This document shows positions 10,101 to 58,507 of a stretch of DNA of 64,000 nt, one piece after another. The position numbers and the translations under genes are program-made. The stretch's first letter is position 1; every line of letters begins with the position of its first letter. The notes under the pieces were generated by a model that had not been told where the DNA came from, made no database searches, and worked only from the letters and a program-made list of their open reading frames with translations. Source of the DNA: an uncultured Chloroflexia bacterium (GTDB taxonomy: Bacteria > Chloroflexota > Limnocylindria > Limnocylindrales > CSP1-4). The stretch spans positions 352,001-416,000 of the forward strand of contig CAVVJT010000010.1 of the NCBI GenBank assembly GCA_963748625.1. The letters are read 5' to 3'.

Positions 10101-10352
10101 ATGGCCGTGGCGGCGGATCGTGAACACCCGCCCGTCCTCGAGCCGGCCGTGGAGGTCACCGCCCCGGCTCCCGCCCCGGACGAGCGGGAACACGTCCTTC
10201 CGGAATCCGAACAGGATCGCGTGGAGGAACTGGTGCAGCGTCGTCTTGCCCGTGCCATTGCGGCCGCGGACAAGCGTGAGCCCGGGTCCCAGCGGGATAT
10301 CGCTGTCAACGGCTCGCCCAAAGCCGTCGATGTGGACACGGTCGATGCGCAC
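7180..10352 (-). CDS. yhaN: YhaN-family (AAA_27) Rad50/SbcC-like ATPase with long coiled coil (frameshift near the 3' end)
   Basis: MRIDRVHIDGFG, GRNGTGKTT, LSRGTAEQLYLAMR, LVMDDVLVNFDPER, QVIYLTCH; internal TM hairpin typical of YhaN. Confidence 0.88.
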
Positions 10353-10355
10353 CTC

Positions 10356-11642: not shown

Positions 11643-11772
11643 CGGGCTCGATGGTGCCCTACCGGACCGGGTGCGTGCAGGGCGGTTCGGCCCGGACGTG
11701 GTTCTTCGGCCCGGACGTGGCTCCGCGCAGCGCGGCCCGCGCCTCCGCGCTCACGCCCCTTCCTGCAGCCTG

Positions 11773-11881
11773 CCCCACGTGGGGGCCGAATCCTGACCTC
11801 CCACGCACGAACCGGGGGCACAACCCGGGGTTTCGCGCGCAGCGCACGCTCGACAGGGCTCGAAACGGCCCCGTGGTGGGG
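11773..11881. repeat. 109-bp MITE/REPIN-like element, divergent copy
   Basis: Imperfect terminal inverted repeats ccccacNNNggggccg; same 109-bp length as the copies at 18621, 19547 and 25291. Confidence 0.45.
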
Positions 11882-11955
11882 CGTTCCGCAGCAGACAGGC
11901 CGCGTCGCATCGAACGGGGCACTCCCGGCGGCGGTCGAGGCGCTACGATGCCGCC

Positions 11956-41286: not shown

Positions 41287-41383
41287 GTCCTCGAGTATCG
41301 CGCGGAACCGCACCGGCGGCGAAGGGTCATGGCCTCACGCCGCCGGGCGGGAGGGCGGGCCAGTCGCCGCGCGATACGCTGCC

Positions 41384-41749
41384 TCAGCAGCCGAACGGCG
41401 TCGCCGAGACCTCCGTGCAGATGGAGCGCATGGTGCGCTCGAGGTTCGACACCGCTGACTCGATCGAGCCCAGCCGGTCCCGAATGCCAGAGATCTCGCC
41501 TTCCAGGCCGCTGGCTGTGTCAGCCTCCATCGACGCTTCGATTGAGTCGATGGACGCCTTGACGGCCTGGAGATCAGAGCTGAGTCCATCCAGCGCGAAG
41601 GTCACGTTGGGATCGGACACGTCGATCCCCGCGGTCGCATCGAAGACATCGTCCGGCGTCGCGACTGGGCGGAGTGCGACGAGCCCGACGAGGCCGAGCG
41701 TGGCGAGTTGGGCAGCGAGGATCAGGGCGAGGATTTGGCGTTCGTTCAT
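41384..41749 (-). CDS. Hypothetical membrane-anchored coiled-coil protein
   Basis: N-terminal hydrophobic helix and heptad-like C-terminus; TACGAT -10 box 6 nt before the ATG. Confidence 0.65.
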   Translation of the reverse strand: MNERQILALILAAQLATLGLVGLVALRPVATPDDVFDATAGIDVSDPNVTFALDGLSSDLQAVKASIDSIEASMEADTASGLEGEISGIRDRLGSIESAVSNLERTMRSICTEVSATPFGC

Positions 41750-41955
41750 TGCGGCATCGTAGGACCGCCGGTCGGCTGCGATAGGTGCCGACTGGACTTC
41801 GGCGTGTGGTCGCGCGAACTTCGGTCGTAGCGGCTAGGCCAGTCGGGGAGCTTGCGGTCCCGCCACGCGGTGCGTACTAGGAAGGTCCTGACGTCGATGA
41901 CAGGGTCCGCACGGGTGCCCAGCCGCGCATGGATGTCACCGCCTAGCAGCAGCGA

Positions 41956-42864
41956 TCAGCCGGACTTGGGGTGGCGTTTCCAGCGGTACTGGGTCGGCTC
42001 CAGGTCACCGTCCTCGATCCGCCACTGCGGGATGAAATCGAGTGTGCCGCCGTCGGCAACAACTGCGTCTCCGGACCGGTCGACCTTGATGCCGGTCACA
42101 ATGGCGAGCGCTGTGTTCGGGTACTTCTCCACCTGCCGGCGCTCGTTGATCGTGATCAGGATCTCCTGGAGTGACCCAACGAGACCCTTCACCTCGACGT
42201 GGAGTTCCTCGCCATCCCTAGTCGCGAGGTAGTCGTAGCTCCGGTTGAGGTGGACGTCCTCTACGTCCCAGTCGTCGCCCCTGAGGTGCGCGAGCGTCAA
42301 CTCCATCGCTCGCTCTTCGATGGCCTTTCGCGACTGCGCGTCGCTCGAGTAGCCTTGGCCACCAACCCGGACGATGCGCTCGAAGGCGGGCTGGTCGACC
42401 AAAAGGCCGCGGGCAAGGTCGTCCTCGAGTGCCGCAGGGGTCGCGTCTGTGCTGGGAAGCTGGACGACGAGCTTGATGCGCCGGGTGTTGTTCCCGGAGC
42501 CGGCCTTCGAGGCACGGTGGCCCACGGATCGCTGGGACCGCTGCAGGCTCAGGCGCGTCGCCTCGGGGTCGACCGACCGCAGGGAGACCGGAAACGGAGC
42601 TCCCGGGTCGAGCACCGTCTCAAAGCGAGGAAGAAACCCGGACCGGCTGGAGTCGACCACGGCGTCAAGCAGGACCGCGTCGAGGGCGCCAAGGCGGGCC
42701 AGGATGAGGTGCAGCCCACGCTCGTAGTCGAGGTGGCGCTCGTTGACGCCACCCTTGGCACCACCACGACTCTCAAGCCAAACGGCTAGGTGGCCATCCG
42801 ACGTGCCAGTGGAGAAGGTCGCATCGAGCGGGTGACCGCCCACATCCCGAACCTTGCGCGCCAA
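41956..42864 (-). CDS. DUF3883 (NOV C-terminal) PD-(D/E)XK nuclease protein
   Basis: RKAIEERAM....L...WDVEDV....SYDYLA..DGEELHVEVKG....ILITINE. Confidence 0.82.
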   Translation of the reverse strand: MARKVRDVGGHPLDATFSTGTSDGHLAVWLESRGGAKGGVNERHLDYERGLHLILARLGALDAVLLDAVVDSSRSGFLPRFETVLDPGAPFPVSLRSVDPEATRLSLQRSQRSVGHRASKAGSGNNTRRIKLVVQLPSTDATPAALEDDLARGLLVDQPAFERIVRVGGQGYSSDAQSRKAIEERAMELTLAHLRGDDWDVEDVHLNRSYDYLATRDGEELHVEVKGLVGSLQEILITINERRQVEKYPNTALAIVTGIKVDRSGDAVVADGGTLDFIPQWRIEDGDLEPTQYRWKRHPKSG

Positions 42865-42966
42865 TCGCCTGCCCCCAAACTGAAGCTGGAGTCACAGTCT
42901 ATGTCGTCATGGGACTTCCCCTGGCGGGCGCTGGATGTCCCGCCTGCGCCCCGCTAAGGTTCGCTC

Positions 42967-43437
42967 GTGCCGACCCACCGTGAGACCTACCACCCCGCCG
43001 ACTACCAGGCACCCGATGGGTCGTGGGCCTCATCAGAGCCGATCCGCCGGACGATGCTGGGTAATCGGGGCCGCGACACCAAGCCGGAACTGGCTGTGCG
43101 GCGTTTGCTTCATTCGCGCGGCTTGCGCTATCGCGTGGCATATAGGCCAGCCCGCTCAGTCCGTCGGTCCGCAGATCTTGTTTTCACTCGAGCTCGGGTC
43201 GCCGTATTCGTCGATGGATGCTTCTGGCACTGCTGTCCGCAGCATTTCCGGATGCCCGCTACCAACCGCGAATACTGGGAGCCGAAGCTCGCCGCGAACG
43301 TGGACCGGGATCGCCAGACCGATGATCTCCTCTCTGCGGAGGGCTGGACCGTCATCAGGGTGTGGGAGCACGAAGTCGCAGTTGAGGCTGCGACCCGCAT
43401 CGAGGATGTCGTGCGCTCAATGCGGAAGGCGCGGTGA
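42967..43437 (+). CDS. vsr: Very short patch repair endonuclease Vsr
   Basis: RDTKPELAVRRLLHSRGLRYR, ADLVF, VFVDGCFWH.CP.H, YWEPKL..NVDRD, GWTVIRVWEHE. Confidence 0.95.
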   Translation: MPTHRETYHPADYQAPDGSWASSEPIRRTMLGNRGRDTKPELAVRRLLHSRGLRYRVAYRPARSVRRSADLVFTRARVAVFVDGCFWHCCPQHFRMPATNREYWEPKLAANVDRDRQTDDLLSAEGWTVIRVWEHEVAVEAATRIEDVVRSMRKAR

Positions 43438-43543
43438 CACCGAACCTGGCACACTCCCTTCGTACTAAGAGTGCTCGCTGACCTCGCCTCAGACGATTGG
43501 AGTACCAGAGATCGCTCGGCGCCATGCTCCTGCAAGCGAAGAG

Positions 43544-44701
43544 ATGTTCCCGGAGTCAGCAGCCGATCGGATGCCCGCGGTGCCGTTCAACTACATCGAC
43601 CGGCCCCAGTTTCGGTTCGTCGACCTGTTTGCCGGGATTGGTGGGATCCGAAAGGGGCTGGAGAGTGCCGGCGGGCGCTGCGTCTTCACGGTAGAGATCG
43701 ACAAGTTCGCGAAACAGACGTACTCGGCGAACTTCGACCCGGTCGAGGCCGGAGATATCCGAAAGCTGCCCGCCGAGGACCTGCCGGTCTATGACGTGCT
43801 TGCGGGTGGGTTTCCCTGCCAGCCCTTCAGCCTCGCCGGCGTCAGCAAGAAGCTCAGTCTGGGGCGCCAGCACGGCTTCAGCGATGAGAAGAGCGGCAAC
43901 CTGTTCTTCGACATCGTGCGGCTCATCGACGACGCGCCGAGTCCCCCGCCGGCCCTCTTCCTCGAGAACGTCAAGCACCTGACGCGCCACGACAAGGGAC
44001 GCACCTTCGCGGTCATCCTGGCGACCCTTGAAGATCGTGGCTACAACGTCGTCTGGAAGGTGGTTGATGCCCGGCCTTGGGTGCCCCAGCACCGCGAGCG
44101 CACGTACATCGTCTGCCTGCATCGCGACTACTACGGCGACGCGCGCTTCGAGTTCCCGGAGATCCCCGCGGACGCTCCGTGGCCCTCCCTCGGATCGATC
44201 CTCGAGAGCGATCCGATCCCAGACCGGTACATCCTGACGGAACACCTCTGGCAGTACCTGCAGGACTACGCCCGGAAGCACCGCGAGCGGGGCAACGGAT
44301 TCGGGTATGGCCTAGTCAGTCCGGAGGATACGACCCGGACGCTGAGTGCCCGGTACCACAAGGATGGGTCGGAGATCCTCGTCCGAACGGACGGACCACA
44401 GCCGCGGCGCCTGACACCGCGCGAGTGCGCGCGTCTCATGGGCTACCCGGACACCTTCGACATCCCGGTTTCCGACACGCAGGCATACCGCCAGTTCGGC
44501 AACTCGGTCGTCGTGCCGGTGATCAGCTTCCTCGCACAGGCACTGGCATCGCAGGTGCCGCTGCGGCAGGCGCAACCGCTCGCAACACCAAGGGGGACAA
44601 CGCGAGTGACCCGGCGTGCCAAGAAGGTGGGGACCAAGTCAACTCAAGATCGCGATCTGCCGCAGGTGGCCTTTCCGTCTGAGGCTCTTGCCGAGGGCTA
44701 G
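43544..44701 (+). CDS. dcm: DNA (cytosine-5) methyltransferase, Dcm/M.EcoRII-like (CCWGG predicted)
   Basis: DLFAGIGG, GFPCQPFS, ENV, QHRER, TRTLSARYHKDGSEIL, RRLTPRECARL, QFGNSV; GVSKK.SLGR.HGF and GNGFGYGLV are typical of Dcm. Confidence 0.93.
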   Translation: MFPESAADRMPAVPFNYIDRPQFRFVDLFAGIGGIRKGLESAGGRCVFTVEIDKFAKQTYSANFDPVEAGDIRKLPAEDLPVYDVLAGGFPCQPFSLAGVSKKLSLGRQHGFSDEKSGNLFFDIVRLIDDAPSPPPALFLENVKHLTRHDKGRTFAVILATLEDRGYNVVWKVVDARPWVPQHRERTYIVCLHRDYYGDARFEFPEIPADAPWPSLGSILESDPIPDRYILTEHLWQYLQDYARKHRERGNGFGYGLVSPEDTTRTLSARYHKDGSEILVRTDGPQPRRLTPRECARLMGYPDTFDIPVSDTQAYRQFGNSVVVPVISFLAQALASQVPLRQAQPLATPRGTTRVTRRAKKVGTKSTQDRDLPQVAFPSEALAEG

Positions 44702-44767
44702 TGCCGAGTGCAGGCGCCGGACCCGCGGTCCCGATGCTCGCGGAACCGCGAGCGCGCTCATCCCGAG

Positions 44768-45904
44768 CTACTCGCCCAACTCCACCTCGAAGGCCTCGCC
44801 AACGCGGTACAGGCGCATCCGTTCGCCAGTCCTCGCCCCGGCTCTACGCAGGAAGTCCCCGACTCCCGTGATCCGATACTCGTCGCGCGTGCTGGTGTTG
44901 AACCGCCGGCCGTTGTAGTGCACCAGGCGCCACGTCCACTTCGTCTCAAGACGCCGAAACAGAACGGACAGCTCCGCCGACGGGTTGACCGTTGACTCGT
45001 CCAAGCGAGTGATGGCTTCAGCCCAGTTGGCACCGATGGCAATTGCAGCCTGGTGGCTGCCCGTGTCCCCGATGTCGTTCGGCGAGAGATGCTTGTCGAG
45101 GACCAGGTCACGCGCAACGCCTGCAGTCGGGCCCGCCGACGGGTCCGCGATGGCCCGGCCCGCCGCCAACGCTGCCTCATCCACAAGGCGAAAGACAATG
45201 TCACGTACGTACTCGTCTGGCAGTGCGCGCAGTTCAACAACCGCACCCTCGCGGCGGACCCGCTTCGACGCCTCTCGCATGATCTCCATCCGAGATGGCT
45301 TGCCGCCAGTCTTCAGGGCGGCAACCGCGCCTCCCAGGTAGCGACCGACCCGGCGATCGCCTGACAGGCTGGAGCGCTCGGTGATCTGAACCAGTTCGTC
45401 TTCACCTAGGAGTCCGAGGAGCTCGTACGGGTCTCCTGCGCTCGGGTCGGACAGTAGTTCCGCCCGCCACCAGAGACGACCGAAGGTGTTGCGAATGCCC
45501 CTGTTCTCGCCAAGGAACCTCTCTCGAGACGTTGGCTCTCCGCTCTGGCCGGGGAACCGCCAACGCACGACATGTGGTGCAAGCACACAGCCGAGGAAAG
45601 CCCACACCCCAGGGTGAGATGCCTCGGCCGGCGACATGTTCAGTGTTCGATGCAGCAGGCGGGCGCCGTATCGATCGAAGTAGTGGATCCCGTCAGCCTT
45701 CTCCGCTTCACCGACAAGGGACGACAGCTTGGCTCGCAGGTCGTGTAGCTCCCTCTCACTGATGCGCGCGCCACCGGAGGTTCCGTACTGGACAAGTGGG
45801 TGCCTCGTGTCACTCAATCGCTGCAGTTGCGGCCATGCGACGCCGCGACGCTCGTCGGCCAATCTGCCGGCCTCAGAAGCGGGCAGGCGAGGCAGTAGGT
45901 TCAC
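44768..45904 (-). CDS. DUF6339-like protein fused to a C-terminal EcoRII-N (B3-like) DNA-recognition domain
   Basis: EASHPGVWAFL...VRWRF...RF....RNTFGRLWW...GEDELVQITER; C-terminal KHLSPNDIGDTGSHQAAI...NP...HYNGRRFNTSTRDEYRITG. Confidence 0.75.
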   Translation of the reverse strand: MNLLPRLPASEAGRLADERRGVAWPQLQRLSDTRHPLVQYGTSGGARISERELHDLRAKLSSLVGEAEKADGIHYFDRYGARLLHRTLNMSPAEASHPGVWAFLGCVLAPHVVRWRFPGQSGEPTSRERFLGENRGIRNTFGRLWWRAELLSDPSAGDPYELLGLLGEDELVQITERSSLSGDRRVGRYLGGAVAALKTGGKPSRMEIMREASKRVRREGAVVELRALPDEYVRDIVFRLVDEAALAAGRAIADPSAGPTAGVARDLVLDKHLSPNDIGDTGSHQAAIAIGANWAEAITRLDESTVNPSAELSVLFRRLETKWTWRLVHYNGRRFNTSTRDEYRITGVGDFLRRAGARTGERMRLYRVGEAFEVELGE

Positions 45905-46809
45905 TCTGGAGCCTCATCGGTTGCTGCGAACGTTCGGAAGAAGCCCTGAAGCCCGGCCTCGATCTCTGCGGGGTGACTCGCATAGATCGCCTGCGCCTCA
46001 GCAAAGGCTGGATGCCCCGGCAGCGCCGCGATGAGGCGTCTCACGGCCTCTCCTACCGTGTCGTCGTCCAACTCCTCGACGTCCGCAGGCTGCCACAACG
46101 AGAGTGCCGTTCCAACCATGGTGCGTGCAACATCAAACCGGATCGCCTCTCGGATCGCGAGAGCATCAGGCTGTGTTGATCCGGTGGTCAGAGCACTGAC
46201 CACCCGCCTTGATCGTGAGTTGACCATGAGCCTGAGACCACCCAGCACGGGCATGGCCGGCCCCTGAATGTCCCAGTCCAGGTACCAGGCCGCATCCACG
46301 CTCATCCCCGGGACCGAGGAGAAGTCAACGATTTCGGTCGGGAACCTGGTGCCAGCGCCCGCCAGGCTCACCCTAACCTCATCCGACCATAGGACACTCC
46401 CTGGTCGACTTGCGACGAAGGGGCGGTCCTGCACCGAACGTGCGAGCACGAGCGCTACCTGGAGCTTGAGCCGCCCGGCAAGTTCCGCACCAGGAACCAC
46501 GCAGTCGATTGCGTGATGGTCGAGGTCAGCGTGCGGCTGCTGTTCGGCGAGATGTCCGCCGCGAATGCTCGTCCCGGAAGAGCTCCAGCCAAGAAACAAC
46601 CGCACCTCGTCTCCGGGCTGCAGTCCACAGTCCTCCATCACGTCCGCCAACATGAAGCCGACCTCGGCCTGGATGTGAAGGTCGGTTGCCGGGTCCCAAT
46701 CGTCGACCTTCAAAGGCACCGAGGCTTCACCGCGGAGCCTGTGCCACTCAACGAAGCTGATCCGGTCGTCCTCGACGGTCCAGAAGGGGCGAATGCGTGT
46801 GCGCGTCAT
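45901..46809 (-). CDS. Hypothetical protein of the Z1/GHKL cluster
   Basis: 302-aa ORF with ATGA/GTGA coupling on both sides. Confidence 0.75.
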   Translation of the reverse strand: MTRTRIRPFWTVEDDRISFVEWHRLRGEASVPLKVDDWDPATDLHIQAEVGFMLADVMEDCGLQPGDEVRLFLGWSSSGTSIRGGHLAEQQPHADLDHHAIDCVVPGAELAGRLKLQVALVLARSVQDRPFVASRPGSVLWSDEVRVSLAGAGTRFPTEIVDFSSVPGMSVDAAWYLDWDIQGPAMPVLGGLRLMVNSRSRRVVSALTTGSTQPDALAIREAIRFDVARTMVGTALSLWQPADVEELDDDTVGEAVRRLIAALPGHPAFAEAQAIYASHPAEIEAGLQGFFRTFAATDEAPE

Positions 46810-48689
46810 CGCTTGCCGCCCTCGAGGGGCACCGCAGTGAGCTCAAGACCGGTCGCCAGATCAGGGGACACCGTCCCAACAACGGCCCAATCGTCGCCAT
46901 CGATGCCTGCGTCGATCTGGACAACCTCACCCGCTATGAACTCGCCGGATGGCGTTCGCCAGCCGAGGACCTCTGGCTGCACAGCACCCGCGGGCACATC
47001 TGACTCGAAGGAGCCATCGTCAAGAACCGCAGCGGCTCGAGCAGTCACAAGCGATCCGAGAGTGCCCTTCTTGTGCTTGATGACGAAGGGCAGGATCACG
47101 ACAGGCCGCCCACCCTCGCCGCCGAACTCCGGCCGACCGGTCGTGATCCGTGCCCCCGGTCCAGTCGTTGTCCCGCGGCTCTTCTCGTGCTCGATCTCGC
47201 CCGGGCGATCTCCATCCGCGCCCAACAGGGCCGCGCCCAGGAAGTTGGTGAACTCCCCTACCGGTGCCTGAGGCTCGCTAGTGCCATGATCGGAAGCCTC
47301 GCCGCGATACGACTGCCCGACCTCGCGCACGGCCTTGAATACGGCGCGGACGACGCCCTTGGCCTCGCCCCCGTCAAGGTTGTCGACAACCCAATCGTCG
47401 TGGGCAGGCGGCTCGGAGTCCGCATAGTGGCGGTCATAGTGCCGATCCGCAATTACTACACCCCCGTACTCCATGACGTCGGTGCTCAGCTCGAGTGCGG
47501 GCACGTAGCGAACGACGAGCTCGGGCGTTCGCATCAGCGCGAAGTGGTGCGAGGGCGAAGAGAAGTCGGGTGGTCCCGCGACGGGCCGGGGAAACTTGAT
47601 CTGAGCTCCGCTGATGCGGCCCCGGGGCCGGATGGGGCCCATCTGAGCTGCTATCAACGCTACCCGGTTCCTCCAGTAGGTGACCTCTCGGGCCCTCGTG
47701 TCTCCGACGGGCACCTCCCCCGCATAGTTCTTGGCCGCCTTGTACGCGGCAACGTACAAGTCCAGCGGGGGAAACGCTTCGGGTGCCGGGACGATGAGAG
47801 GGGAGCCCTCCCAGCTCGCGGTGAAGTCAATCGCAGGCCGGCCATCCGAACCCGGCAGCATCTTCGGCCAGAAGTACCAGAGAAACCCTTCGACCAGGAA
47901 GGCCATAGCCCCGAGACCGAAGCCGCCGTCAAACTTCGGGTTGATGACGCCAATTGTGGTCCCGGTCTCGACGCGGTCGAACCCGGGCAATCCGAGCAGC
48001 TCGGCAGCTTCATCAGCCTCGGCATTGAGAAGGGGCTCGACAATCCCACCGCGCCTCTCGCCCCACCAGTGCCGTCCGGTGTAGCGACCCAGGTCAGGGC
48101 CCGTCCTTATGGCGTATCGGGGGCCAACACAGCTGATGATGAACCGAGACTCCAGGCTCCCAGCGTGTCGTGTCCGCGTGTAGACCGCGAGCGTCTGGGT
48201 CTCGGCCGCGAGGTAGAGGGCTGCCTTGCCGTACCCGTACGTTCCGCCGGTTGACACGCGGCGGTCCGGCGGCTCGCCGACATTCCTCAGGAAGTCGACG
48301 AAGTCGCGCGGCGCGTTGTCAGCAGTCATTTCATCTGCGCGCGTGGGCCCACCCAAGCCCTTCGTGCCGCGGTCGCTCAGTGCCAGAACCCAGGCGGGCC
48401 CGCCAGTGCGGACCACCTCGTAGAGCGGGAGTGTGTCCTCGCTCGCGCCCGGAGGAAGATCGCTGAAGAACCGGCGAACGATCTCGCTGCGCCGGGTCAC
48501 GGCGTACCCATCAAGCGCAAATCGGATCGTCGCTCCGATGTGCGCGTCCCACGAGTTCTGGACTGCCTCCCGCAGCATGATCGTCATGGGATCGATCGCC
48601 GGCCGGCCAAGCGGGTTCAGGAGGCCTTCTCCAGCCAGGTTCCCCATCGCTCCGAATGCTTCGGACTGAACGTGCAGCGATCCGATCAT
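46806..48689 (-). CDS. GHKL (MutL/MORC-like) ATPase
   Basis: N-box LREAVQNSWDA, G1 SDRGTKGLGG, G2 GGTYGYGKAA, G3 GTTI. Confidence 0.8.
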   Translation of the reverse strand: MIGSLHVQSEAFGAMGNLAGEGLLNPLGRPAIDPMTIMLREAVQNSWDAHIGATIRFALDGYAVTRRSEIVRRFFSDLPPGASEDTLPLYEVVRTGGPAWVLALSDRGTKGLGGPTRADEMTADNAPRDFVDFLRNVGEPPDRRVSTGGTYGYGKAALYLAAETQTLAVYTRTRHAGSLESRFIISCVGPRYAIRTGPDLGRYTGRHWWGERRGGIVEPLLNAEADEAAELLGLPGFDRVETGTTIGVINPKFDGGFGLGAMAFLVEGFLWYFWPKMLPGSDGRPAIDFTASWEGSPLIVPAPEAFPPLDLYVAAYKAAKNYAGEVPVGDTRAREVTYWRNRVALIAAQMGPIRPRGRISGAQIKFPRPVAGPPDFSSPSHHFALMRTPELVVRYVPALELSTDVMEYGGVVIADRHYDRHYADSEPPAHDDWVVDNLDGGEAKGVVRAVFKAVREVGQSYRGEASDHGTSEPQAPVGEFTNFLGAALLGADGDRPGEIEHEKSRGTTTGPGARITTGRPEFGGEGGRPVVILPFVIKHKKGTLGSLVTARAAAVLDDGSFESDVPAGAVQPEVLGWRTPSGEFIAGEVVQIDAGIDGDDWAVVGTVSPDLATGLELTAVPLEGGKR

Positions 48690-49679
48690 CCGTGCAGCGA
48701 CTCCGCGAACTCAATGAGAAGGTCGCTCAGGACCCCGGCAGCGATGGGAGCAGGTGCCTCCTCGAGGTTCGATCTGGTACTGAAGTCCAACGACTCCGGC
48801 AACAGGCCACGCGTGGAAGGCTTGGGCGGTCAGCCGGGGGAACGTCCGATCAACGAGGAATGCTCTCCTTGTCTTGACCCGCAGCCGAGTCTGATCGTCC
48901 AAGAGGTCGGCCGCCGATACGCCGGCGGCATCGAGGCGGTCATAGAGCTCGACTGGCTGAACCCCCAAGGCGTGAATGCGTGAAACAAGGTCCTGAAGGG
49001 TGTCACCGCCAGCAGGGACCTTTTCCACGACGTAGACGACCAGTAGCAGGCGGCCGTCGGGTGGCGTTGCCAACTGGTCCACCCCATGGACAACCAGCGC
49101 TGTCATGCCGCGGTCGAAGGTCGTCTTCACCTCAATGTCGATGCCATCGCTGACGAAGTCGTGGCGACCCTTGGCTGGGCCCGCCCAAGAGCCAACGGCA
49201 TTCACGGACCTGCTTGAGAGCTCCTCCAGGAGCGTGAGTTCGCCAAACAGACCCATGCGCGCTGACTGGCTCAGGCCGCCCGCCGGCGGGTTCCGGAAGA
49301 GCTCCCGCCAGCGATCGAGCACGACGCTGGCGGCAAGATCCGGAGCGCTCATCCCGTCCGCTGCGCCGAGTGCCTCGACGGCAACAGCTGTGAACACGTG
49401 GTTGAGCCGCGCGTCGAGACATGCCAAGTCGACGAATGGCCGGAGCACACCGTCAACCAGCAGATCTCTCGGCACGATCTGCACGCCGCTGCTGCGTGTG
49501 TCGGGCCGGATTGCCCGGTCCGCCTCAGACGGGAAGAGAATGTGACGACGGCCCCATGGATCGACAGCTACCCGCGCCGTCGCCGGAGAGGGCAGTTCGA
49601 GCACCAAGTATTCATCGCGGGAGCCCTCCCCCGAAGCCAGGAGCCCCGCGAAGGCATCGTCCAAGCCGCGTAGGTCCAT
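48686..49679 (-). CDS. DUF4420 PD-(D/E)XK nuclease (frameshift near 48768)
   Basis: WRELF, GLFGEL, SWAGP...RHDF....IEVKTT, HGVDQL; the repaired frame ends at an ATGA overlap with the GHKL gene. Confidence 0.85.
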
Positions 49680-52268
49680 CAGGCAGCCCCATCAATCTCG
49701 TCATCGAAGTCCGTCTCGCCCTCGGGCTCTTCGACGTAGGCCTCCGCCAGGAAGGCGGTCTTGTAGGTCTGTGGCGTGCTGTTCTGGGCCTTCGGGAACA
49801 CGATGCCCAAGCCGATCACGTCCTCAACCGCACCGAGGGGCTCACGGTCCCCTCCGGCCTCTCCACCGTCCTTGTCCAGTACGTAGACGAGCAGAAGGGG
49901 AACTGCTGCCCTCCTCTCAAGGATCCGGTCCAGCGCCGCGGCGCCCGTCGGAGTCGTGCGATCTGCGAGATCAAGGACCAAGTCCCCGGCGCTCACGATG
50001 ACGCCCATGCGCGCAGTCGCATCATCGGACGCCTTCAGGCGGGACCGCTTGAGTGCACCCACCTTCACGTCGGGCGTGAACTTCACCTCTCGGCCATCAG
50101 AGCGTCCGATGAACGCGACATTCCACCGAGTGAGTTCCTGGCGCTTCACCTGGTCGCGGATGTATCCGCCGATGGTGTCGCCGGAGAGGCTGCGGGCACC
50201 TTCGTGGAAACGGTACGTCTCGACAAAGTCGAGCACGGATCCGTACTCGACCCCACGACAGACGACCGACCCGCGTACGTCGTACCGCTCGCTCGCGGCC
50301 GCCCTCGCGAGGCGCTCAGCAGCTCGAAGGTTGTCGCACAGGAACTGAGGGTCCCTGTGGTGGAACATGATCGTCTGCACCAATTGCCCGCTGAATGACA
50401 CCTCTGCGTCCACAGCCCGCCGCATCTTCAGCGGGGAGGTGATGCTCAGGGCCGGGTGGCAGCGGATCCTCGGCCCGAACTGACGGGGTGTCAGGCCTTC
50501 GCTTTCATACCGTGCTATGTCGAAACGGATCTCCTGCTCAACCAGCGCGAGATCGGCGAACGATCCTTCCAGCTCCTTGGTCATCCAGATCCGCGGCAAG
50601 TCCTCGTACCCGTCACGGTAGCCAAACCAGCGACCCATCTGGAGGAGCGTGTCGTACGAGCCCGCGGCCCGGACGAAGTAGCTGACCACAAGGCCCTCGA
50701 GAGTGAGCCCTCTCGATAGGACGTTCCCCCCGATCACGATGAACACGGACCCGGGCTTGGCATAAGTGAGGCGCCTCGCACTCTGGGCGTTCTCGATGAC
50801 TACCTCGAGTGCGGCGAGCACTCCGGGAAGTGCTTCGGCCAGTTCTACAAACGCGACCGACCTAGGCCACAGCCCCTCGGGCTGAACGCGTCCCACCTCT
50901 GCAGCCCACAGCGAGCGGAGCTCCTCGATGAGGGTGGCATCGCCGCTGTCGATCTTCTGCTTGAGTTCGGCAAGAAGACCGCCGAGCGCATGGGCCATCT
51001 TGTTCTGCACGTCCACGTACATCGAGGTGTGTACGAGCATGCTGGAGTGCTCGTCCCGATCGCCGCGCGCCCAGCGAGCTGCAGTTGCCATCACGAAGTA
51101 GGCGGTAGCAGAGCGGAGCGACTCGGTGACCTCCGGATCGAACTGGCCGCGCGACTTTGCCGTCCGTGGCTGAAGAGCGACGATCTCGTCTTCAGGGACC
51201 TGCCGGACGACGTCCAGGCCGGGCCTTCCTGTTTCTGACTCGTCCGGCAAGCGGTCTCGTCCGAACAGGCGCTCCGTGCCGAAATAGGTCCCCGGCCGCG
51301 GCAGGTCGAAGATGAAGTCGCGGGGGTACAGGTCGTCATCCTCGGCGTCCCGCATGCCGATGAGGACATTCGCGAATGGAGTGGCGGTGTAGCCAACGTA
51401 AGCGGAACGGGGATACACGCGGAGGAGTTCGCGAATCCGGTCGTTGATGGAGGACGGATCGGAGTCGGACGCGGTGTTCGATACTCGCCTGATCTGCCTC
51501 ATCGTCAATGACCAGGAGCGGGCAGTCCGCGAGGACACCCGAACTGGCCCTCCGACTCCACGTGATCAACTTCTTCAGGCGCACGGAGTTCTTCTTAACG
51601 ACCGCCAAGACGCGCTGGTCGCTGTCACCACGGAGGATCGCGTCCGGCTGCTTCCAGCTCCCAACCTTGAAGTCAGATTCCTCACTTGTGAGGCTGTGCC
51701 ACATCTGTTTCGTAAGAGGTGTGAGGTCGACTATCTCGCGGTCCAACCGCTTCTGCGTCTGGACTCGCAGTGCCTCATGCACGCCCGCAAGCACGATGAT
51801 GAATTTGTACCCGGCATCCGCCGCCTTAGCGACCACGGCCGAGTAGTTGGCGGTCTTGCCGCTCTGTACGTACCCAAGGACGAGGCCGCGGGAGTCGAAT
51901 TCGGCTTGTGCCGGATTTGGCAGATGCGCAACAATTCTCGAGCTCGCGCTGTCAATGCTGGAAACGGCCTCTTGGGGGAGCCGCTTTTCCAGCGCCCGGC
52001 GCATCTCCGGCCAGAACGGGTCGTTGGGATGTGGGTTCTGGTACCAGCCCTTGTCCTTCACATCGACAAAGCCGGCAGGGATCTTGTACTTGCGGATCCG
52101 ATCTGCTCGCGCTTCAAAGATCGACAAAGCTGCGGCCAGCCGATCCGGAGGGACCCACCGACTCAGGTCCTGCACCGCCTTGTCTGCGGTCTTTCCGTCC
52201 CGAACCGCGCCGCGAATCGCGTCTACCAGGGGCTCCAGGTCCAAATCCTCGAAGATCGGTTCTTCCAC
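49679..52268 (-). CDS. Z1-domain SF2 ATPase/endonuclease (frameshift near 51480)
   Basis: GLVLGYVQSGKTANY, VVKKN, IDDEADQAS, YVGYTATPFAN, SMLVH, GGNVLSRGLTLEGLVVSYF, DTLLQMGRWFGYR. Confidence 0.92.
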
Positions 52269-52385
52269 CGCTACTTCCTCCCCGGCAATCTGCCGCCAGC
52301 CGTCAAGTGCGTGCGCACGCTCACACGTGTTGAGCGAACCTCAGGATCGCGCCTCGACGATCGGGGCAGCGTCCTCGCCCGAACG

Positions 52386-54740
52386 TTAGCCATCCTGCGA
52401 ATCTCCAAGCACTCGCCCTAGGGTCGTTCCCCATCGCGGCGTGATGCGCCGGGTCGCCGGATCGAAGGTGAGAGTGAACGTCGGTCCGGCGTCACCCTGG
52501 CGACGGAACCACGGCTTCACGCCGTTCCGCAACTGCGTCGCGGCGACAACGACCATCCAAGACACATCGCCGTCCTGCAGGGTCCAGGATCCGTCGAGGC
52601 CCGCGTCGGCCGGAACCCGGAGGAAACCGTTCCAGTCCAAGGCATCGCGGACGTCGACGGTCAACCTGACACGGCCAGCTGGATCCCGATCGACACCCGA
52701 GACCACGGCTGGCGCAGGGCCGCCCCGACCGGCATCGGCCGCACGGGCGGCATCAAGGTCCGCGGTGGTGAAGCTCGCACCCGGGATCGCGTAGAGCGAC
52801 GCACCTACCCGTTCCACAACCAGCGACTGGCCCAGCGCCACGCTCATCGTCACCACTTCAATGCCTGCGGCAAGGACCTGGCGCCGGATCACGTGGTAGT
52901 GGACGACGGGGCCACGAGCGCGGAGCACTTCCAGCACGACCCGCTCCGCCACTCCCGGCTGAACGTCCATATCCGGACCGATCCACGCGTACCGCGACCC
53001 TGTATCCCGAACGAATGGACTCTGCGCGAGCGCCTCCTCAAGAACGGCCATTGGGAGTGAAACACCGTGGTCCGCGCGGCGACGAGCATCGCGACGGAGC
53101 GCACGGTTGATCGAGTGGAGCCCCTGCGGCCCCACCACTAGGAGCAGCTTGGCCACGCGCTTGACGAACGGCGTCTCCAGGTCTCGCGGTCGCCACGCCC
53201 AGCAACCACCAGCAAGCCAGCCGATGCCGTCAAGGCCGGCGATATGTTCACGAACCCCTTCCGGATCAACCACGACGCCGATAAGGTCCAACTCCGCTTG
53301 CACCTCGGCAAGCGAGACGAAACCACGACGGCGCAACTGCCGTCGCACTGCTCCGCGAAGTGCTCCATCGTTGGTCTGTATGGCCGCGATGGCTTCCTTC
53401 GACACGCCAAGGACATCCCCGTCCTCGGACTCAACCACTGACCAATCCCGCACCAGCTTCAGGCGCCCGATCTCCTCGAGCGCCTCAAGCTCGACCTCGC
53501 GGTTGGTGAGGCCCATCTGCCGGCACTCGACAGCCAAGTCACGGCGTCGCATCGCTCCGCCCGCCTGCTGCAGGAGGGCCTGGATAAGACACGCGGTCGG
53601 CAGGAAGCGGCCGCGTTCAAGCTGCTTCCGCTCCACCTTGTCAACGATCTGGCGAATCCGCTCACGCGTGAGCTTGTACTCCTGCGCGACCTCATCGAGC
53701 GTCTTTCGACCATCACCGTCCCAACCCCAACGCCTGCAGAGGATCTCGCCGGACCGGTTGGCCGGCACCAAGGCTGACAACTCATCGGACAGGCGCTGTG
53801 GGTGTTCGAGCCGGTCGGCGATGAGCAGGAGCCCCGTCCTGAGTTGATCCCGATACCCCACGAGGCCACGGCGCTGGTCGATCGTCTCACCGAGCACCTC
53901 GCGAATCGAGACATGCTCCGTGCTTCGGAGCCCCAACTGCGGGTCGCTCAGCAGGATCTGGTCCAGCCAAGGATCGAGCATCGTTTGCGCATCCGCCGGA
54001 AGGTCGAGCCACTCCCCGATCGGCGTATGGGCAACGACGGCGGGGTCTTCGGCGGTCTGCTGCTCTGCACGCATCAAGTCAGCGACGCGGGCGTGTCGGT
54101 CGCTGCGAATTGGAGGGGGGCCAGCAAGGGCCTTCAGGATCCCGCTTCGGAGCAATTCGAGCGCGGTCTTGCCGACGGCGTAGAAGGAGAGGAACCGCTC
54201 CTCGGAAAGATCGGCGATGTTGGCGAAGACCAGGTATCCCTCGCGACGGAGCCTGTTGGCGGCGCGGCTGCCAACGACCTCCTCGGTGATTAGCTCGTCC
54301 GACCAGGGTTCTGACTTCAGGACGGCTGCGGTATCCGCGTCGAAGATCGGGGTCCCAGCGACCAAGCCCTGGCGTACGGCCGGGTTCGCGACCCCGGCGT
54401 CTCGCGCATCGGGGATCGGACGCGTGACGAGATCCGTGACGCGCTCCTGCAGGAGGGCGAGCGACGTGACGCCTGCTCCCCGGATCGCCAGGAACTCCTG
54501 CTGCGTGATGCCGGCTAGATGGGCGAGGACCGAGAAGCCAGCGCGCCGAAGGCAGTTGAACCCGCGGACCCCGATGAGATCCGCGGTGATGGAAACGTCC
54601 CGCCAGGGATCTTCGCGGAGCAGCTGCGAGATGGCTGCCGGAAAGACGGGCTCGTCAGGGGCAGGCTTGGGCGCTTGAGCTGGCGCTGGCACGACCCTGC
54701 CCGCGGCGCGAACCCGGAACCGGTGCTTCATCGCGGCCAT
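52386..54740 (-). CDS. Protein with two RNAP alpha-CTD-like domains, a sigma70 region-4 HTH and C-terminal extensions
   Basis: GVRGFNCLRRAG...FLAIRGAGVTSL; GSRAANRLRREG...FLSFYAVGKTAL; ILCRRWG....TLDEVAQEYKLTRERIRQI. Confidence 0.8.
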   Translation of the reverse strand: MAAMKHRFRVRAAGRVVPAPAQAPKPAPDEPVFPAAISQLLREDPWRDVSITADLIGVRGFNCLRRAGFSVLAHLAGITQQEFLAIRGAGVTSLALLQERVTDLVTRPIPDARDAGVANPAVRQGLVAGTPIFDADTAAVLKSEPWSDELITEEVVGSRAANRLRREGYLVFANIADLSEERFLSFYAVGKTALELLRSGILKALAGPPPIRSDRHARVADLMRAEQQTAEDPAVVAHTPIGEWLDLPADAQTMLDPWLDQILLSDPQLGLRSTEHVSIREVLGETIDQRRGLVGYRDQLRTGLLLIADRLEHPQRLSDELSALVPANRSGEILCRRWGWDGDGRKTLDEVAQEYKLTRERIRQIVDKVERKQLERGRFLPTACLIQALLQQAGGAMRRRDLAVECRQMGLTNREVELEALEEIGRLKLVRDWSVVESEDGDVLGVSKEAIAAIQTNDGALRGAVRRQLRRRGFVSLAEVQAELDLIGVVVDPEGVREHIAGLDGIGWLAGGCWAWRPRDLETPFVKRVAKLLLVVGPQGLHSINRALRRDARRRADHGVSLPMAVLEEALAQSPFVRDTGSRYAWIGPDMDVQPGVAERVVLEVLRARGPVVHYHVIRRQVLAAGIEVVTMSVALGQSLVVERVGASLYAIPGASFTTADLDAARAADAGRGGPAPAVVSGVDRDPAGRVRLTVDVRDALDWNGFLRVPADAGLDGSWTLQDGDVSWMVVVAATQLRNGVKPWFRRQGDAGPTFTLTFDPATRRITPRWGTTLGRVLGDSQDG

Positions 54741-54780
54741 GTCTCCCCCTTGGCACAATGCCGATCTATCAACTCCCCCA

Positions 54781-57700
54781 TCACACCCGCTCCGGGCACA
54801 TCGCCCGATAGTCGCACCACTGGCACGCCTTGCCGGGGGTCGCCGTGAAGTCGCCCGAGCGGATCCGGGCCGCGCGCTCCAGGATCGCCACGCGGGCCGC
54901 ATCGAGCTGGTCGTCCGTGCGGGTGGTGGACATCCGCTGGGCGGTCTCGGTGAAGTAGAGGGTGACGCGCTCGGGCGTGCCCAGGGCCAGCGCGTCGCGG
55001 CAGGCGAGGGCGTAGATGGTCAGCTGGAGGTTCTCGCTGACGTCCTTCTGGCTGGACATGCGGCCGGTCTTGTAGTCGATGACCTCGACGCCGCCGTCCG
55101 GCGTCCGATCGATCCGGTCGATCCCGCCGTGGATGCGCACGGGCGCGCTGCCGTCGTCGGGCATGAGCACGAGCTCGAAGTCCAGCTCCTCGTGCAGGGC
55201 CTCCCCCACCCCCTCCAGCTCGCCTGACCAGAAGTTGTCCAGCATGGTGTCGATGCGGCGCTTGTAGCCGGCCTCGGCGGTGGCGTCGGGGAAGGCCTCG
55301 GGCGTCCAGTTGGCGGCGAAGAGGGTGGCGAGGTCCTCGCGCGTGGGCATGGGCTCGCCCCGCGCGGCGCGCTCGCGGCGCTCCCTGGTGAACGCCTCGA
55401 AGGTGGCGTGCGCCGTGTGACCGAACCCGAAGGCGGCCACGGGCCGGGCGGGCTCCGGGATCCGGTAGACGTAGGCCAGGGCGTACCGCAGCGGACACGC
55501 CTCGTACATGGACAGGCTGCTGTACGAGAAGTGGCCGGGCACGGGCGCCACGGCGAGGAGGTTCGCGCCGGCCCCACTGTCGAGCGCGACGGTCCGGAAG
55601 GTGAGCGGGTCAAGGCCGGCGGCACGGGCCTGGTCTGCCGACATGGCCGCGGACCGGCCGATGTCCACCAGCTGCTGCTCGAACCGGGCCCGGGCGGCGT
55701 CGGCCTCGGGATCGGCGGCAGCGGTGGCCTCCATGCAGGCCGATGAGCTCGGATGCGCGCAGGCGCAGCGCGAGGCGACGCTCACGCGACGAGGGCAGCG
55801 GGAGGACCCGGCGGGCGGCGGCCAGGGCGGCTGTGGCACCGGCAAGACCATCGGGCCCGTCGGCTCCGGCTTCGGTTTGGGTTCCGTCTTCGGCGGCTTC
55901 GGCGTCGGCGGCTTCGGCATCGGCGTCGTCGTCGTCCAGCGTCCGGTCGATGACGGTCAGCTCCGGCCCCCGGCCGTCGAGCAGCTCCGCGATGAACATG
56001 CTCTGGGCCTTCGCGCCCGCGCCCCCGTGCGTGCACAGGAGCAGGCGTTCCTGCGCCCGGGTGATCGCCACGTACAGGAGCCGCCGCTCCTCGTCGAGGT
56101 GGAGGTTGCCGCCCGGGACCTGCTCGCGCAGGAGCTCGCGCGGGAACCAGCCGCTCCCCTGCTCCTTCACGGGCCACTCGCCCTCGAGCAGGTCCGGCAC
56201 CACCACCACGGGGAACTCCAGGCCCTTCGCCTGGTAGAGGGTCATGAGGCGCACGCCCTCGACATCCTCGGACAGCTCCACGCTGGTGGGCAGCTCGCCG
56301 CCCGCGGTCTTGAAGGCCTCGAGGTAGTCGATGAAGTCCGCCAGGGTGCCGCTCGGGTTGGCGGCCTGCCAGTCCGCGGTGAAGCGCAGGAAGCTCGCGA
56401 TGGCGACGACGGAGCGCTTGGCCTCCAGGGTGCCGGTGGCCAGGAGGTCCAGCACGGTGCCGTTGAGCTCCAGGTAGCGCTCCAGGATGGTGTGCGGGCC
56501 GTCGCGCCAGGTCCGCGGGTTGAGCTCCTCGATGGCGGCAAGGAGGTTGCGCAGCTTCGCCCGGAGGGCGGGATCGACGGGGGCGCGGCGTTCGGTTCGG
56601 TCGCCGCCGTTGCCGTTTGCGCCGTTGTTGCCGTTGCCGTTGCCGTTGTTGCCGCTGGCGCCGTGGTGGCTGGTGTCGCCGGCAGCGGGCGCGAGGTTGG
56701 CCTCGCCGCTGTCCACCAGCCGGTGGACGGCCGAGAGCAGGTGGCTGCGGTCGAACTTGGCATCGCGGCTGACCGCGAGGATCTCCAGGGCGTCGAGGCG
56801 CCACGGGCCGCCGGTCATCATGCGCACGAGGGCGGCGTCGTTGGTGGGATCGGCGATGGCGCGCAGGGCCTGCTCGAGGTCCCGGATCTCCGGCGTCTCG
56901 AAGAGCGACAGCCCACCGACGATGGTGAACGGGATGTCCTCCGCCTTGAGCCGATCGACGATGGCGTCGCGGTGCTTGTGCTTGCGGTACAGGACGGCGA
57001 CGTCGTTCCAGGCGCGGCCGGCGGCGTGGAAGGCGCGGATGGCGTCCACGATGGCGACGGCCTCGTCCTCGGGCCCGGCGCAGACGTGGAGCTCGATGGG
57101 GTCGCCCGGGTGCTTGTCGGTCCGCAGGACCTTGTCGGGCGCGAAGCGGGTCTCGTTGCGGCCGATGAGGCGGTTGGCGGCGTCGAGCACGAAGCTGGTG
57201 CTGCGGAAGTTCTGCTCGATGGCGAGGTGGCGCGGGGGTGCGGCCGGCTCCAGGTCGGGCGCGTGCGCCGGGGGCCGACTGAAGCGGGCGTCGAATTCGG
57301 CGAAGGCGGCGAAGCTGGCGCCCCGGAAGCGGTAGATCGACTGGTCGTCGTCACCCACCACCATGACGTTGTCGGGCCGATCGGGCGTGCGGCCCAGAAG
57401 CTCGATGAGCTCGATCTGGGCGACGTTGGCGTCCTGGAACTCGTCCACCAGGATGTAGCGGAACTGGCGCTGCCATCGACGGAGGACGTTGGGGCGGCGT
57501 CTTGAAGAGGCGGGCGACCAGGGCGATCTGCTCGCCGAAGTCGAGGAGGCCGCGCGCGGCGATGGTGTCCTCGTAGGCGCGATAGACGCGGGCGATCTCG
57601 GCGAGGCGCATGACCTCCAGGGCGGCGCCGTCGAGGACGTAGGTGGCGGCGAGCTCATCGATGCGTTGGAGTTGATCGCCGTCCAGGCGGTTGCGGCCGA

Positions 57701-58507
57701 CCAGGCCGCCCGTGCCGATGATGTTGCGGCGGGCCTCCCGCTCGGCGGTCCGCTCGTGCTCGTCGTGCTTGTAGGGCTTGACCTCGAAGCCTGCGGCCTC
57801 GGCGCGCTCCTTGGCGCGGACCCTCGCGTAGTCGCCGCGGACGTCGCGCACGGGCTGCAGGTGGCCGGTGCGGTCCAGGCGCTCGGTGGCCGCCTCGAAG
57901 CTGCCGTAGTCGTGCTTCGTAGATCGTCGCGCTCGGCGTCCACGAAGGCGTCGAAGTCGTCCGGGCTGACCAGCTCGTCCTTGGCGCGGTTGATGAAGCC
58001 CACGAGACCGCCCAGGGCCCAGTCCGCGTGGTAGCGCAGGTCCAGGGCGGGCGTGATCTCGCGCAGGAGGAGGAGCTGGCCGATGCCGTCGAGGACGTCC
58101 GGCCGCGCCGGGAGGCCGGCGTCGGCGGCGTTCTCGGTGAGGATGCGCTGGCAGAAGCTGTGGAAGTTGCTCACGCTCATGCGGGCGCGGGTAGCCGGGC
58201 CCACGGCCTGGTCCAGGCGCTGGCCCAGCTCGGCTGCGGCCTTGACGTTGTAGGTGAGGACGAGGAGCTGCTCGGGCGCGAGGGGGCCGTCGAAGGGGTT
58301 GCCGTGCCTCGGTGCGGGCTCGGCCGGGATGGGGCTGCCCGCGGTCGTGGTATCGCCCTTGGTGGCCAGCAGCCAGCGGACGCGCTCGACGATGACGCGG
58401 GTCTTGCCGGTGCCGGCGCCCGCGATGACGACGGTGGGGCCGTCGGGCGCCTCGACGATGGCGCGCTGGGCCTCGGTGAGCGTCGTCACTGCCCCGTCGC
58501 CGGTCAC
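54781..58507 (-). CDS. UvrD/AddA-type helicase fused to a RecB/Cas4-like Fe-S nuclease (AdnA/B-like); frameshifts near 57915, 57500 and 55730
   Basis: AGAGTGKT, VDEFQD, VGDDDQSIYRFRGA, QAKGLEF, EERRLLYVAITRA; SYSSLSMYEACP, GGIDRID, VIDYKTG, QLTIYA, CQWCDYRAMC. Confidence 0.88.

Follow-up and report, generated by a model that had tools for sequence, protein, structure and literature searches.

Operons that combine a superfamily-2 (SF2) helicase, a nuclease and a cytosine methylase make up a family of predicted anti-phage defence systems that has already been proposed twice. Iyer, Abhiman and Aravind described type-3 MORC/paraMORC operons, which contain an SF2 helicase, a restriction-fold nuclease, a GHKL protein, a cytosine methylase and Vsr (Iyer et al., 2008; PMC2292703). 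Miller described a putative “Type I” system of six genes (Z1, PD-(D/E)XK, a cytosine methylase and three further genes) that is strongly associated with DNA-repair endonucleases, widely distributed and undetected by PADLOC and DefenseFinder (Miller, 2022; Nat Commun 13:5731, PMC9523054). The present analysis concerns a related locus in a 64,000-nucleotide (nt) stretch of DNA, referred to here as the window (contig CAVVJT010000010.1 of assembly GCA_963748625.1, positions 352,001 to 416,000 of the forward strand). Five genes, encoding Z1, DUF4420, GHKL, a 302-amino-acid (aa) protein and DUF6339, form a cassette that converges on vsr and a C5 methylase gene, and the DUF6339 protein ends in an EcoRII-N domain. 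The reading favoured here, with moderate confidence, is that the cassette is a methylase-linked, ATP-dependent, multi-subunit restriction-type machine, acquired horizontally, whose EcoRII-N reader senses unmethylated CCWGG. The preliminary description of this DNA had called it an uncharacterised defence system: uncharacterised it is, but not unrecognised, since Miller and Iyer et al. had both predicted the family. What is new, with no mention found in the literature searched, is the EcoRII-type reader variant, the fusions to dead methylases, and the reading of DUF6339 as an adaptor.

The window shares with Miller’s system Z1 (PF10593), DUF4420 (PF14390) and a C5 methylase (PF00145), and it has three further conserved genes (GHKL, 302-aa and DUF6339) as well as Vsr. 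We infer that these three are Miller’s extra genes, which the paper’s text does not name. There are also differences: reader tails, EcoRII-N and dead methylases go unmentioned in the available text of that paper, and the window has a sigma-like gene in addition. With the type-3 operons the window has in common the helicase (its C-terminal domain was later named Z1), nuclease, GHKL, methylase and Vsr, but the window GHKL has no assignment to a named paraMORC family, and the DUF6339 and 302-aa genes are not mentioned in the account of these operons as far as its text was available (PMC2292703).

Two characterised enzymes offer partial parallels. CglI consists of a DEAD-Z1 H-subunit, a B3-bearing R-subunit and a C5 methylase, and undergoes ATP-driven translocation (PMC5861437). 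CglI and NgoAVII (PMC4267653) thus share with the window a DEAD-Z1 motor, a subunit with a B3-like domain and a C5 methylase. In CglI, however, the B3 domain sits on a phospholipase-D (PLD) nuclease and reads GCCGC, whereas in the window it is part of DUF6339, a PD-(D/E)XK nuclease is encoded separately, GHKL and the 302-aa protein are added as two subunits, and Z1 would be about 900 aa (if unbroken) instead of 632 aa; Pfam found no PLD domain in any protein of the lower-GC island that holds the locus. The Type IIE enzyme EcoRII (3hqf, 1na6; PMC2770665) resembles the window in its B3 pseudobarrel (28–29% identity), its seven base contacts and its Dcm-family methylase. It differs in that the island has no EcoRII-C, the window barrel is shorter (about 112 residues vs about 170), and the phosphate contacts Y41, K92 and R101 are altered.

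The locus had been labelled an “AIPR-less Mza” system, and this label is not supported. Mza (mzaABCDE) was reportedly described by Gao et al. in 2020. Judged by the NCBIfam and PADLOC models and by Miller (2022), the likeness is limited to Z1 and DUF4420, which are homologous to MzaC and MzaD, and to a sigma region-4 protein upstream. All scores fall far under the NCBIfam cut-offs: 309.3 and 120.2 bits for MzaC (equivalog cut-off 1500), 50.5 bits for MzaD (cut-off 420) and 31.7 bits for MzaA (NF041931; cut-off 800). This last match covers just 50 residues of the region-4 motif (PADLOC 1.4e-4), which lies mid-protein in the window but near the C-terminus in the MzaA profile. MzaB has no match among the nine island proteins (PADLOC, NCBIfam, E ≤ 0.01), GHKL being matched by PDC-M33A alone, and the absence of AIPR (MzaE) was borne out: none was found in the nine island proteins or the flanking open reading frames (ORFs) scanned.

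PADLOC also includes PDC-M33, one of 145 untested candidates (Payne et al., bioRxiv 10.1101/2024.01.29.577857). GHKL resembles PDC-M33A (weakly) and DUF6339 resembles PDC-M33C, in the window and in three relatives, but these matches are partial and weak (1e-5 to 1e-12, about 60–140 of 627 profile positions), and the 302-aa protein is unmatched. The check with PADLOC v2 gave no full match to any modelled system, and no mention of DUF6339 or PDC-M33 was found in the literature searched. Two other families, the HEF_HK/Response_reg_2 GHKL/C5-methylase/Vsr family (PMC8011034) and Shedu-GHKL (PMC12137116), were set aside as unrelated.

A conserved five-gene cassette

When one genome per species was scanned, 227 DUF6339 relatives were found; the counts given here rest on the 80 of these whose loci were kept, with gene presence determined by tblastn using the window proteins (Table 1). 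The upstream sequence spans 6.8 kb or more in 72 loci, and 68 of these have Z1, DUF4420, GHKL, the 302-aa gene and DUF6339 arranged and oriented as in the window; the departures are L039, L052, L068 and L075. Once the queries were diversified, a C5 methylase was found in 68/80 loci; the 12 loci without one are 8 short contigs and 4 full-length loci from Amycolatopsis. Because the five genes and their order are conserved, with a methylase nearby across loci, the cassette is a unit of its own. The preliminary description had counted two of its members as extra genes, which does not hold: both, like GHKL, are fixed parts of the cassette. Its proposal of a multi-subunit, methylase-linked, ATP-dependent restriction-type machine is supported, as a prediction from the genes.

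The cassette is present in Chloroflexota, Actinomycetota and Betaproteobacteria. Within the host’s own family, relatives were found in 2 of 40 other genomes, at 39–42% identity. GC content is 0.62–0.66 across about 41.5–54.8 kb of the window, the island, as against 0.70–0.73 in the flanks. Together, the sporadic distribution and the GC dip point to horizontal acquisition. The four Amycolatopsis loci (L031, L034, L045 and L051) have a full cassette with no C5 methylase or Vsr detectable within 10 kb, and in L031 a Lon protease gene lies upstream of Z1; in such cases the cassette may act with an unlinked methylase or with none.

The 627-aa protein is probably a GHKL ATPase. Residues E41/N45/D48, D106/G108/G111 and G148/G149/G152/G154/K155 (the N, G1 and G2 boxes) are invariant in 25/25 homologs. 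Domain searches were less informative: Pfam matched 0/25 members of the family, the family profile retrieved no PDB sequence at E ≤ 10, NCBIfam gave no match, an hhalign alignment to E. coli MutL covered the N-box only (17 columns, E 0.081), and a search of the ESM Atlas returned only clusters that were unnamed or called “ATP-binding”. The earlier GHKL call holds at the level of the Bergerat motifs. In DUF4420, the predicted nuclease residues E147, D174, E183 and K185 (E-D-ExK) are invariant in 67 aligned homologs.

The 302-aa protein has no match in Pfam, NCBIfam or PADLOC. Its model has an N-terminal beta-sandwich and a C-terminal helical bundle (AF2 pLDDT 89.6), and a fold search returned generic beta-sandwich matches only. 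In a predicted complex with residues 1–255 of DUF6339, the pair reached an ipSAE of 0.82, whereas none of three controls exceeded 0.00. The partners had a pLDDT of 78 or more, and the runs agreed on at least 75% of contacts; the predicted interface puts DUF6339 residues 222–228 against residues 136–139 of the 302-aa protein. In an approximate calibration (the alignments differ), the ipSAE mark was reached by 58 of 80 solved complexes and 2 of 110 mismatched pairs. This modelling supports binding between the two proteins, and the 302-aa protein is proposed to be an adaptor that would bind DUF6339.

The proposed EcoRII-N reader and the methylase

The DUF6339 protein is modelled as an all-alpha domain (residues 1–252), a short linker and a seven-stranded barrel (residues 266–377; AF2 pLDDT 92.8). 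A fold search with the alpha domain gave only low-Z helical bundles (Z ≤ 7.1) and no assignment. The barrel has the B3/EcoRII-N pseudobarrel fold: its comparison with 3hqf gives Z 11.0 and a root-mean-square deviation of 2.4 over 115 residues, and the 29% identity tops all of its B3 matches (the B3 domain of R.NgoAVII gives Z 7.9). When a HMMER alignment to EcoRII was read against the contact list of Golovenko et al. (2009), all seven base-contact residues were found to be kept: EcoRII N28, H36, Q37, Y85, R94, E96 and R98 correspond to window N276, H284, Q285, Y330, R340, E342 and R344. They include the readers of the central A:T pair. Since all seven are invariant in seven fusion proteins that are only 45–64% identical to one another, sequence-specific binding appears to be under selection. 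In EcoRII-N, 5-methylcytosine (5mC) at the inner C of either strand abolishes binding (PMC2770665). The earlier suggestion that an EcoRII-N-like domain reads unmethylated CCWGG is thus plausible, judging from the retained contacts.

The EcoRII-N tail is a rare version of DUF6339. Six such fusions are known from databases (P0001–P0006), and a metagenome scan for further ones gave 26 loci, none of them clear; L084 matched query residues 1–339, but its ORF stops at 261 aa. An EcoRII-like ORF at the metagenome locus L085 was considered as a donor of the B3 tail and rejected, its N-terminal half being unlike the window barrel (E 1.0).

Methylases of the Dcm type modify the inner cytosine of CCWGG, and the T:G mismatches to which 5-methylcytosine gives rise are repaired by Vsr. 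Over 354 aligned columns the window methylase and E. coli Dcm share 49% identity, the variable (target-recognition) region included; the window protein has the PCQ, ENV and QxRxR motifs, and its gene is the only PF00145 gene in the host genome. The protein also matches PADLOC DrmMII (2.7e-125) and reaches 361.7 bits against NF007772 (cut-off 710). The window Vsr is 40% identical to that of E. coli. At two metagenome loci, L085 and L087, methylases 60% and 57% identical to the window’s lie beside Vsr and EcoRII-C nucleases (L085:1517–2740, minus strand, PF09019 2e-44; L087:8301–9062, minus strand, PF09019 6e-14), and the L085 nuclease ORF aligns to EcoRII residues 194–395 (E 3e-27). The company of EcoRII-C nucleases ties this methylase subfamily to CCWGG enzymes and bears out its earlier description as Dcm/M.EcoRII-like. 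Methylase similarity and reader contacts are two independent lines that lead to the same pentamer, and going by these comparisons the window methylase most likely targets CCWGG. The EcoRII-type units of L085 and L087 directly adjoin cassettes whose DUF6339 is tail-less, so that a single methylase neighbourhood can be common to the cassette and a classical Type II system for CCWGG.

If the tail is matched to the methylase, the two should vary together. This expectation held in one direction: a B3 tail comes with a Dcm-like methylase in 3/3 loci with context, but the reverse fails at L085 and L087, and the numbers are small. Among the 80 genome loci, L005 has an EcoRII-type tail with intact contacts and a methylase 63% identical to the window’s (its DUF6339 gene is frameshifted). 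Apart from L005 and a second B3-tailed locus, L006, the methylases of these loci are 24–43% identical to the window’s.

Other relatives carry other tails. Of the 80 DUF6339 proteins, 52 have no tail, 1 (L005) has the EcoRII-type tail, 16 have other tails of about 100–150 residues, and 11 are fused to a C5 methylase. Given the 52 tail-less proteins, the tail is not the family’s general specificity device. The 11 methylase fusions are from Streptomyces, and their C5-methylase domain is full-length (the four that were scanned match PF00145 at 1e-35 to 1e-38). In 11/11 the catalytic Pro-Cys motif is absent while motifs I and VI are kept, and an intact methylase gene follows each fusion: the fused dead methylase may be a pseudo-methylase that serves as a DNA reader. 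A single mycobacterial type accounts for 14 of the 16 other tails; its only Pfam match, winged-helix-like, stays under the threshold (PF22168, E 0.005 in L018). In addition, two DUF6339 relatives from databases carry a sigma-54 DNA-binding domain. The loci with the mycobacterial-type tail have large C5 methylases (650–680 aa) on the opposite strand.

Because the same tail site accepts a barrel, a dead methylase or helix-turn-helix domains, it is best seen as an attachment point for DNA readers, and DUF6339 looks like an adaptor for interchangeable ones. A broader version of this idea is put forward only tentatively, at less than even confidence: DUF6339 would be a universal dock that plugs swappable sensors of unmethylated DNA into one ATP-driven motor–nuclease–GHKL machine. 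Its sensors would be the B3 barrel, the dead C5 methylase, the helix-turn-helix tails and perhaps a free methylase.

The island and its neighbours

All nine reading frames of the locus were confirmed in an ORF check, and the gene set, order, strands and nearly all domain calls of the preliminary description were borne out by Pfam, PADLOC and NCBIfam (GHKL is the exception). The claimed coupling from Z1 to DUF6339 is also there: Z1 and DUF4420 overlap by 1 nt, DUF4420 and GHKL are separated by 21 nt, and GHKL/302-aa and 302-aa/DUF6339 each overlap by 4 nt. The minus-strand operon converges on the vsr–methylase pair as described, with 66 nt between the DUF6339 and methylase stops. A promoter and terminator scan of 41500–55500 found 0 promoter-like sites and 4 terminator-like sites (6.9 expected).

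Table 1. Genes of the locus in the window, with their occurrence among the 80 related loci, and the tail types of related DUF6339 proteins
Feature	Position	Strand	Family evidence	Related loci
vsr, very-short-patch T:G mismatch endonuclease, 156 aa	42967–43437	+	TIGR00632 2e-38; PF03852 8e-17	47/80
C5 cytosine DNA methylase, Dcm/M.EcoRII type, 385 aa	43544–44701	+	PF00145 3e-81	62/80 (window protein as query)
DUF6339 + EcoRII-N	44768–45904	-	PF19866 1.5e-15; PF09217 5.5e-8	80/80
302-aa protein	45901–46809	-	no family match	79/80
Probable GHKL (Bergerat-fold) ATPase, 627 aa, paraMORC-like by context	46806–48689	-	motifs; PADLOC PDC-M33A 1.2e-5	75/80
DUF4420 PD-(D/E)XK nuclease, 322 aa	48711–49679	-	PF14390 9e-42	71/80
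DEAD-Z1 superfamily-2 motor, two frames	49679–51538 and 51336–52268 (span 49679–52268)	-	PF10593 2e-65	71/80
alpha-CTD/sigma-4 protein, 785 aa	52386–54902, probable start near 54743	-	PF03118 1.3e-7; PF04545 7e-7	0/80
Methylase-fused DUF6339	~9990–11900 in each			L054, L055, L061, L065, L067, L069, L072, L074, L076, L077, L081
Mycobacterial-type tail				L018, L019, L021, L028, L032, L037, L040, L041, L046, L047, L049, L050, L053, L058

The Z1 gene is split in this assembly. Against the MzaC profile, frame 49679–51538 covers positions 308–795 and frame 51336–52268 covers 89–302; the Walker A and DEAD motifs are both present, and the two halves match PADLOC Helicase_II at 2.5e-15 and 2.1e-15. 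In 69/70 homologous loci Z1 is a single ORF of 850–1025 aa. A single additional base, at 51479, shifts the frame just past the DEAD motif. Three metagenome contigs (three runs, two studies) match with zero mismatches up to 51478 or from 51480 on, and the alignment of all three ends exactly at 51479. One of the contigs joins bases 51468–51478 directly to 51480 without the extra base, and uninterrupted Z1 copies therefore occur in nature; these contigs have low depth (2 to 3.6) and may come from related strains and not from the source population. The break reflects either a mistake in the assembly or a private variant.

The sigma-like gene lies inside the island, co-directional with the cassette and 117 nt upstream of Z1. 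Its start is probably near 54743, since the long ORF overlaps the end of a flanking nuclease gene by about 120 nt. The protein has a sigma-70 region-4 helix-turn-helix and a 400-aa C-terminal part without assignment. Of the architecture (alphaCTD)2-sigma4 given earlier, Pfam recovers sigma-4 and one alpha-CTD stretch; the second alpha-CTD repeat was seen by eye only. The gene is not a conserved part of the cassette, and the claim that it belongs to the system is not supported: it has no relative in the 80 loci, nor was one found in the 106 DUF6339 loci checked later. Full-length relatives were likewise absent from 400 genomes of the phylum, three distant relatives (22% identity) were found among 5.8 billion proteins, and cassette genes were absent near two partial homologs. 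The simplest reading is that it encodes a local regulator.

Several neighbouring genes were also noted. Another ORF of 302 aa, with a NOV_C domain (NO VEIN C-terminal, restriction-fold-like; PF13020 2e-8), lies inside the lower-GC island at 41956–42864 on the minus strand, divergent from vsr, and may be a further defence-type gene. At the island’s edge, a 691-aa ORF (39238–41313, minus strand) has DEAD/Helicase_C and a C-terminal phosphoribosyltransferase-like domain (PF00156 3.9e-5, under its cut-off). High-GC host DNA on the other flank (54781–58519, minus strand) encodes a PD-(D/E)XK nuclease (PDDEXK_1 2e-43) and a UvrD-like helicase (969 aa). A tRNA search of 30000–64000 found none, and so no integration site was identified. 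The host assembly is 4.63 Mb (relatives in the same family are mostly 2.4–3.8 Mb) with an estimated contamination of 7.74%, and it may hold foreign contigs; the contig bearing the window is 1.4 Mb.

Proposed mechanism and alternatives

In the favoured reading, host DNA would carry the mark of the Dcm-type methylase at the inner C of CCWGG, and Vsr would repair T:G mismatches derived from 5mC. The B3 barrel on DUF6339, to judge from its seven contacts, would bind CCWGG only when both strands are unmethylated, and its alpha domain is predicted to dock onto the beta-sandwich of the 302-aa protein. The assumption is that this contact connects the reader with both the GHKL ATPase and the motor–nuclease pair. 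By analogy with H.CglI, the DEAD-Z1 motor would translocate on DNA with ATP, the DUF4420 PD-(D/E)XK protein would cut DNA, and a GHKL dimer would probably gate or bridge the complex. Hemimethylated, newly replicated host DNA should go unattacked, because methylation of either strand blocks the model domain EcoRII-N.

Several observations weigh against this reading. Literature searches turned up no experiment on any member of the cassette family, the evidence for the GHKL identity consists of motifs, and Z1 is frameshifted in this assembly. The 52 of 80 relatives without a reader tail must also be accounted for. As to the target, the methylase sequence alone does not separate CCWGG from CCNGG, and CCWGG is neutral in the genome, at an observed/expected ratio of 0.98 over 27,297 sites (rank 474 of 1008 five-mers). 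Such word statistics were set aside as uninformative about target or restriction pressure; CTWGG-type products were also unremarkable. The L006 tail is a B3 domain without the N-arm contact residues, yet its methylase is 56% identical to the window’s (the L123 alignment is identical to that of L006 and apparently represents the same sequence). Finally, L085 and L087 pair Dcm-like methylases with tail-less DUF6339; at both loci the methylase may be part of the neighbouring EcoRII-type enzyme and not of the cassette.

Some of these points recur in an unlikely alternative in which the cassette does restrict but does not take its specificity from the B3 tail: targets would be chosen by, for example, a DUF6339-recruited methylase or domains of Z1 or GHKL, leaving the tail as an accessory anchor or a domain for allosteric licensing, like EcoRII-N in EcoRII. 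The tail-less majority and the L085 and L087 pairings fit this view, as does EcoRII itself, in which the N-domain binds an effector and is not the catalytic reader (PMC2770665). The invariance of the seven base contacts across divergent fusions argues against it, as does the fusion of other DNA-binding modules at the same position in relatives. It is quite unlikely that the frameshift is real and the locus dead in its host. The assembly does show two overlapping Z1 frames where 69/70 homologs are intact, but the alignments of three contigs end at the extra base, one contig bridging the site without that base, and every other gene is full length.

Defence genes often cluster. A Dcm–Vsr pair orphaned from an EcoRII-type system that lost its nuclease could therefore have come to lie beside a methylation-independent Z1/DUF4420/GHKL cassette, the two being independent neighbours, and L085 and L087, with full units of EcoRII-C nuclease, Dcm-like methylase and Vsr beside the cassette, present such a neighbourhood. 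This explanation is nevertheless very improbable: diverse C5 methylases (24–63% identity) accompany the cassette in 68/80 loci, 11 loci have DUF6339 fused to a dead methylase domain, the window’s tail and methylase share a predicted pentamer, and Pfam found no EcoRII-C (PF09019) remnant among the island’s nine proteins. Somewhat less probable still is a role outside defence, in which a MutL-like ATPase, helicase and nuclease would process Vsr nicks as a repair or epigenetic-maintenance machine for Dcm/Vsr. Vsr is indeed present at 47/80 loci, a MutL–Vsr parallel was raised by Iyer et al. (2008; PMC2292703), and Miller (2022; PMC9523054) noted the repair-endonuclease association. But the reader’s model protein is blocked by 5mC, which points to unmethylated DNA and not to T:G mismatches; CglI, which combines a DEAD-Z1 motor and a B3 subunit, has been proven to be a restriction enzyme; and both the sporadic distribution (2/40 genomes of the same family) and the island’s GC below that of its flanks fit mobile defence.

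The restriction-type reading bears on a cassette that is widespread and has twice been predicted as defence. The window variant makes the way in which the cassette would discriminate self from non-self directly testable, because it pairs a predicted CCWGG methylase with a structurally known, methylation-sensitive reader; E. coli dcm+ and dcm- strains are a source of methylated and unmethylated targets. If the tentative dock proposal were true, the cassette would represent a class of restriction with swappable, separately encoded specificity, the window would show the capture of a Type IIE enzyme’s allosteric sensor, and the Streptomyces fusions would be bacterial pseudo-methylases that read their partner’s unmodified site. 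If DUF6339 is an adaptor, this would explain how one machine can serve many methylase specificities, and dead methylases would join the known DNA readers.

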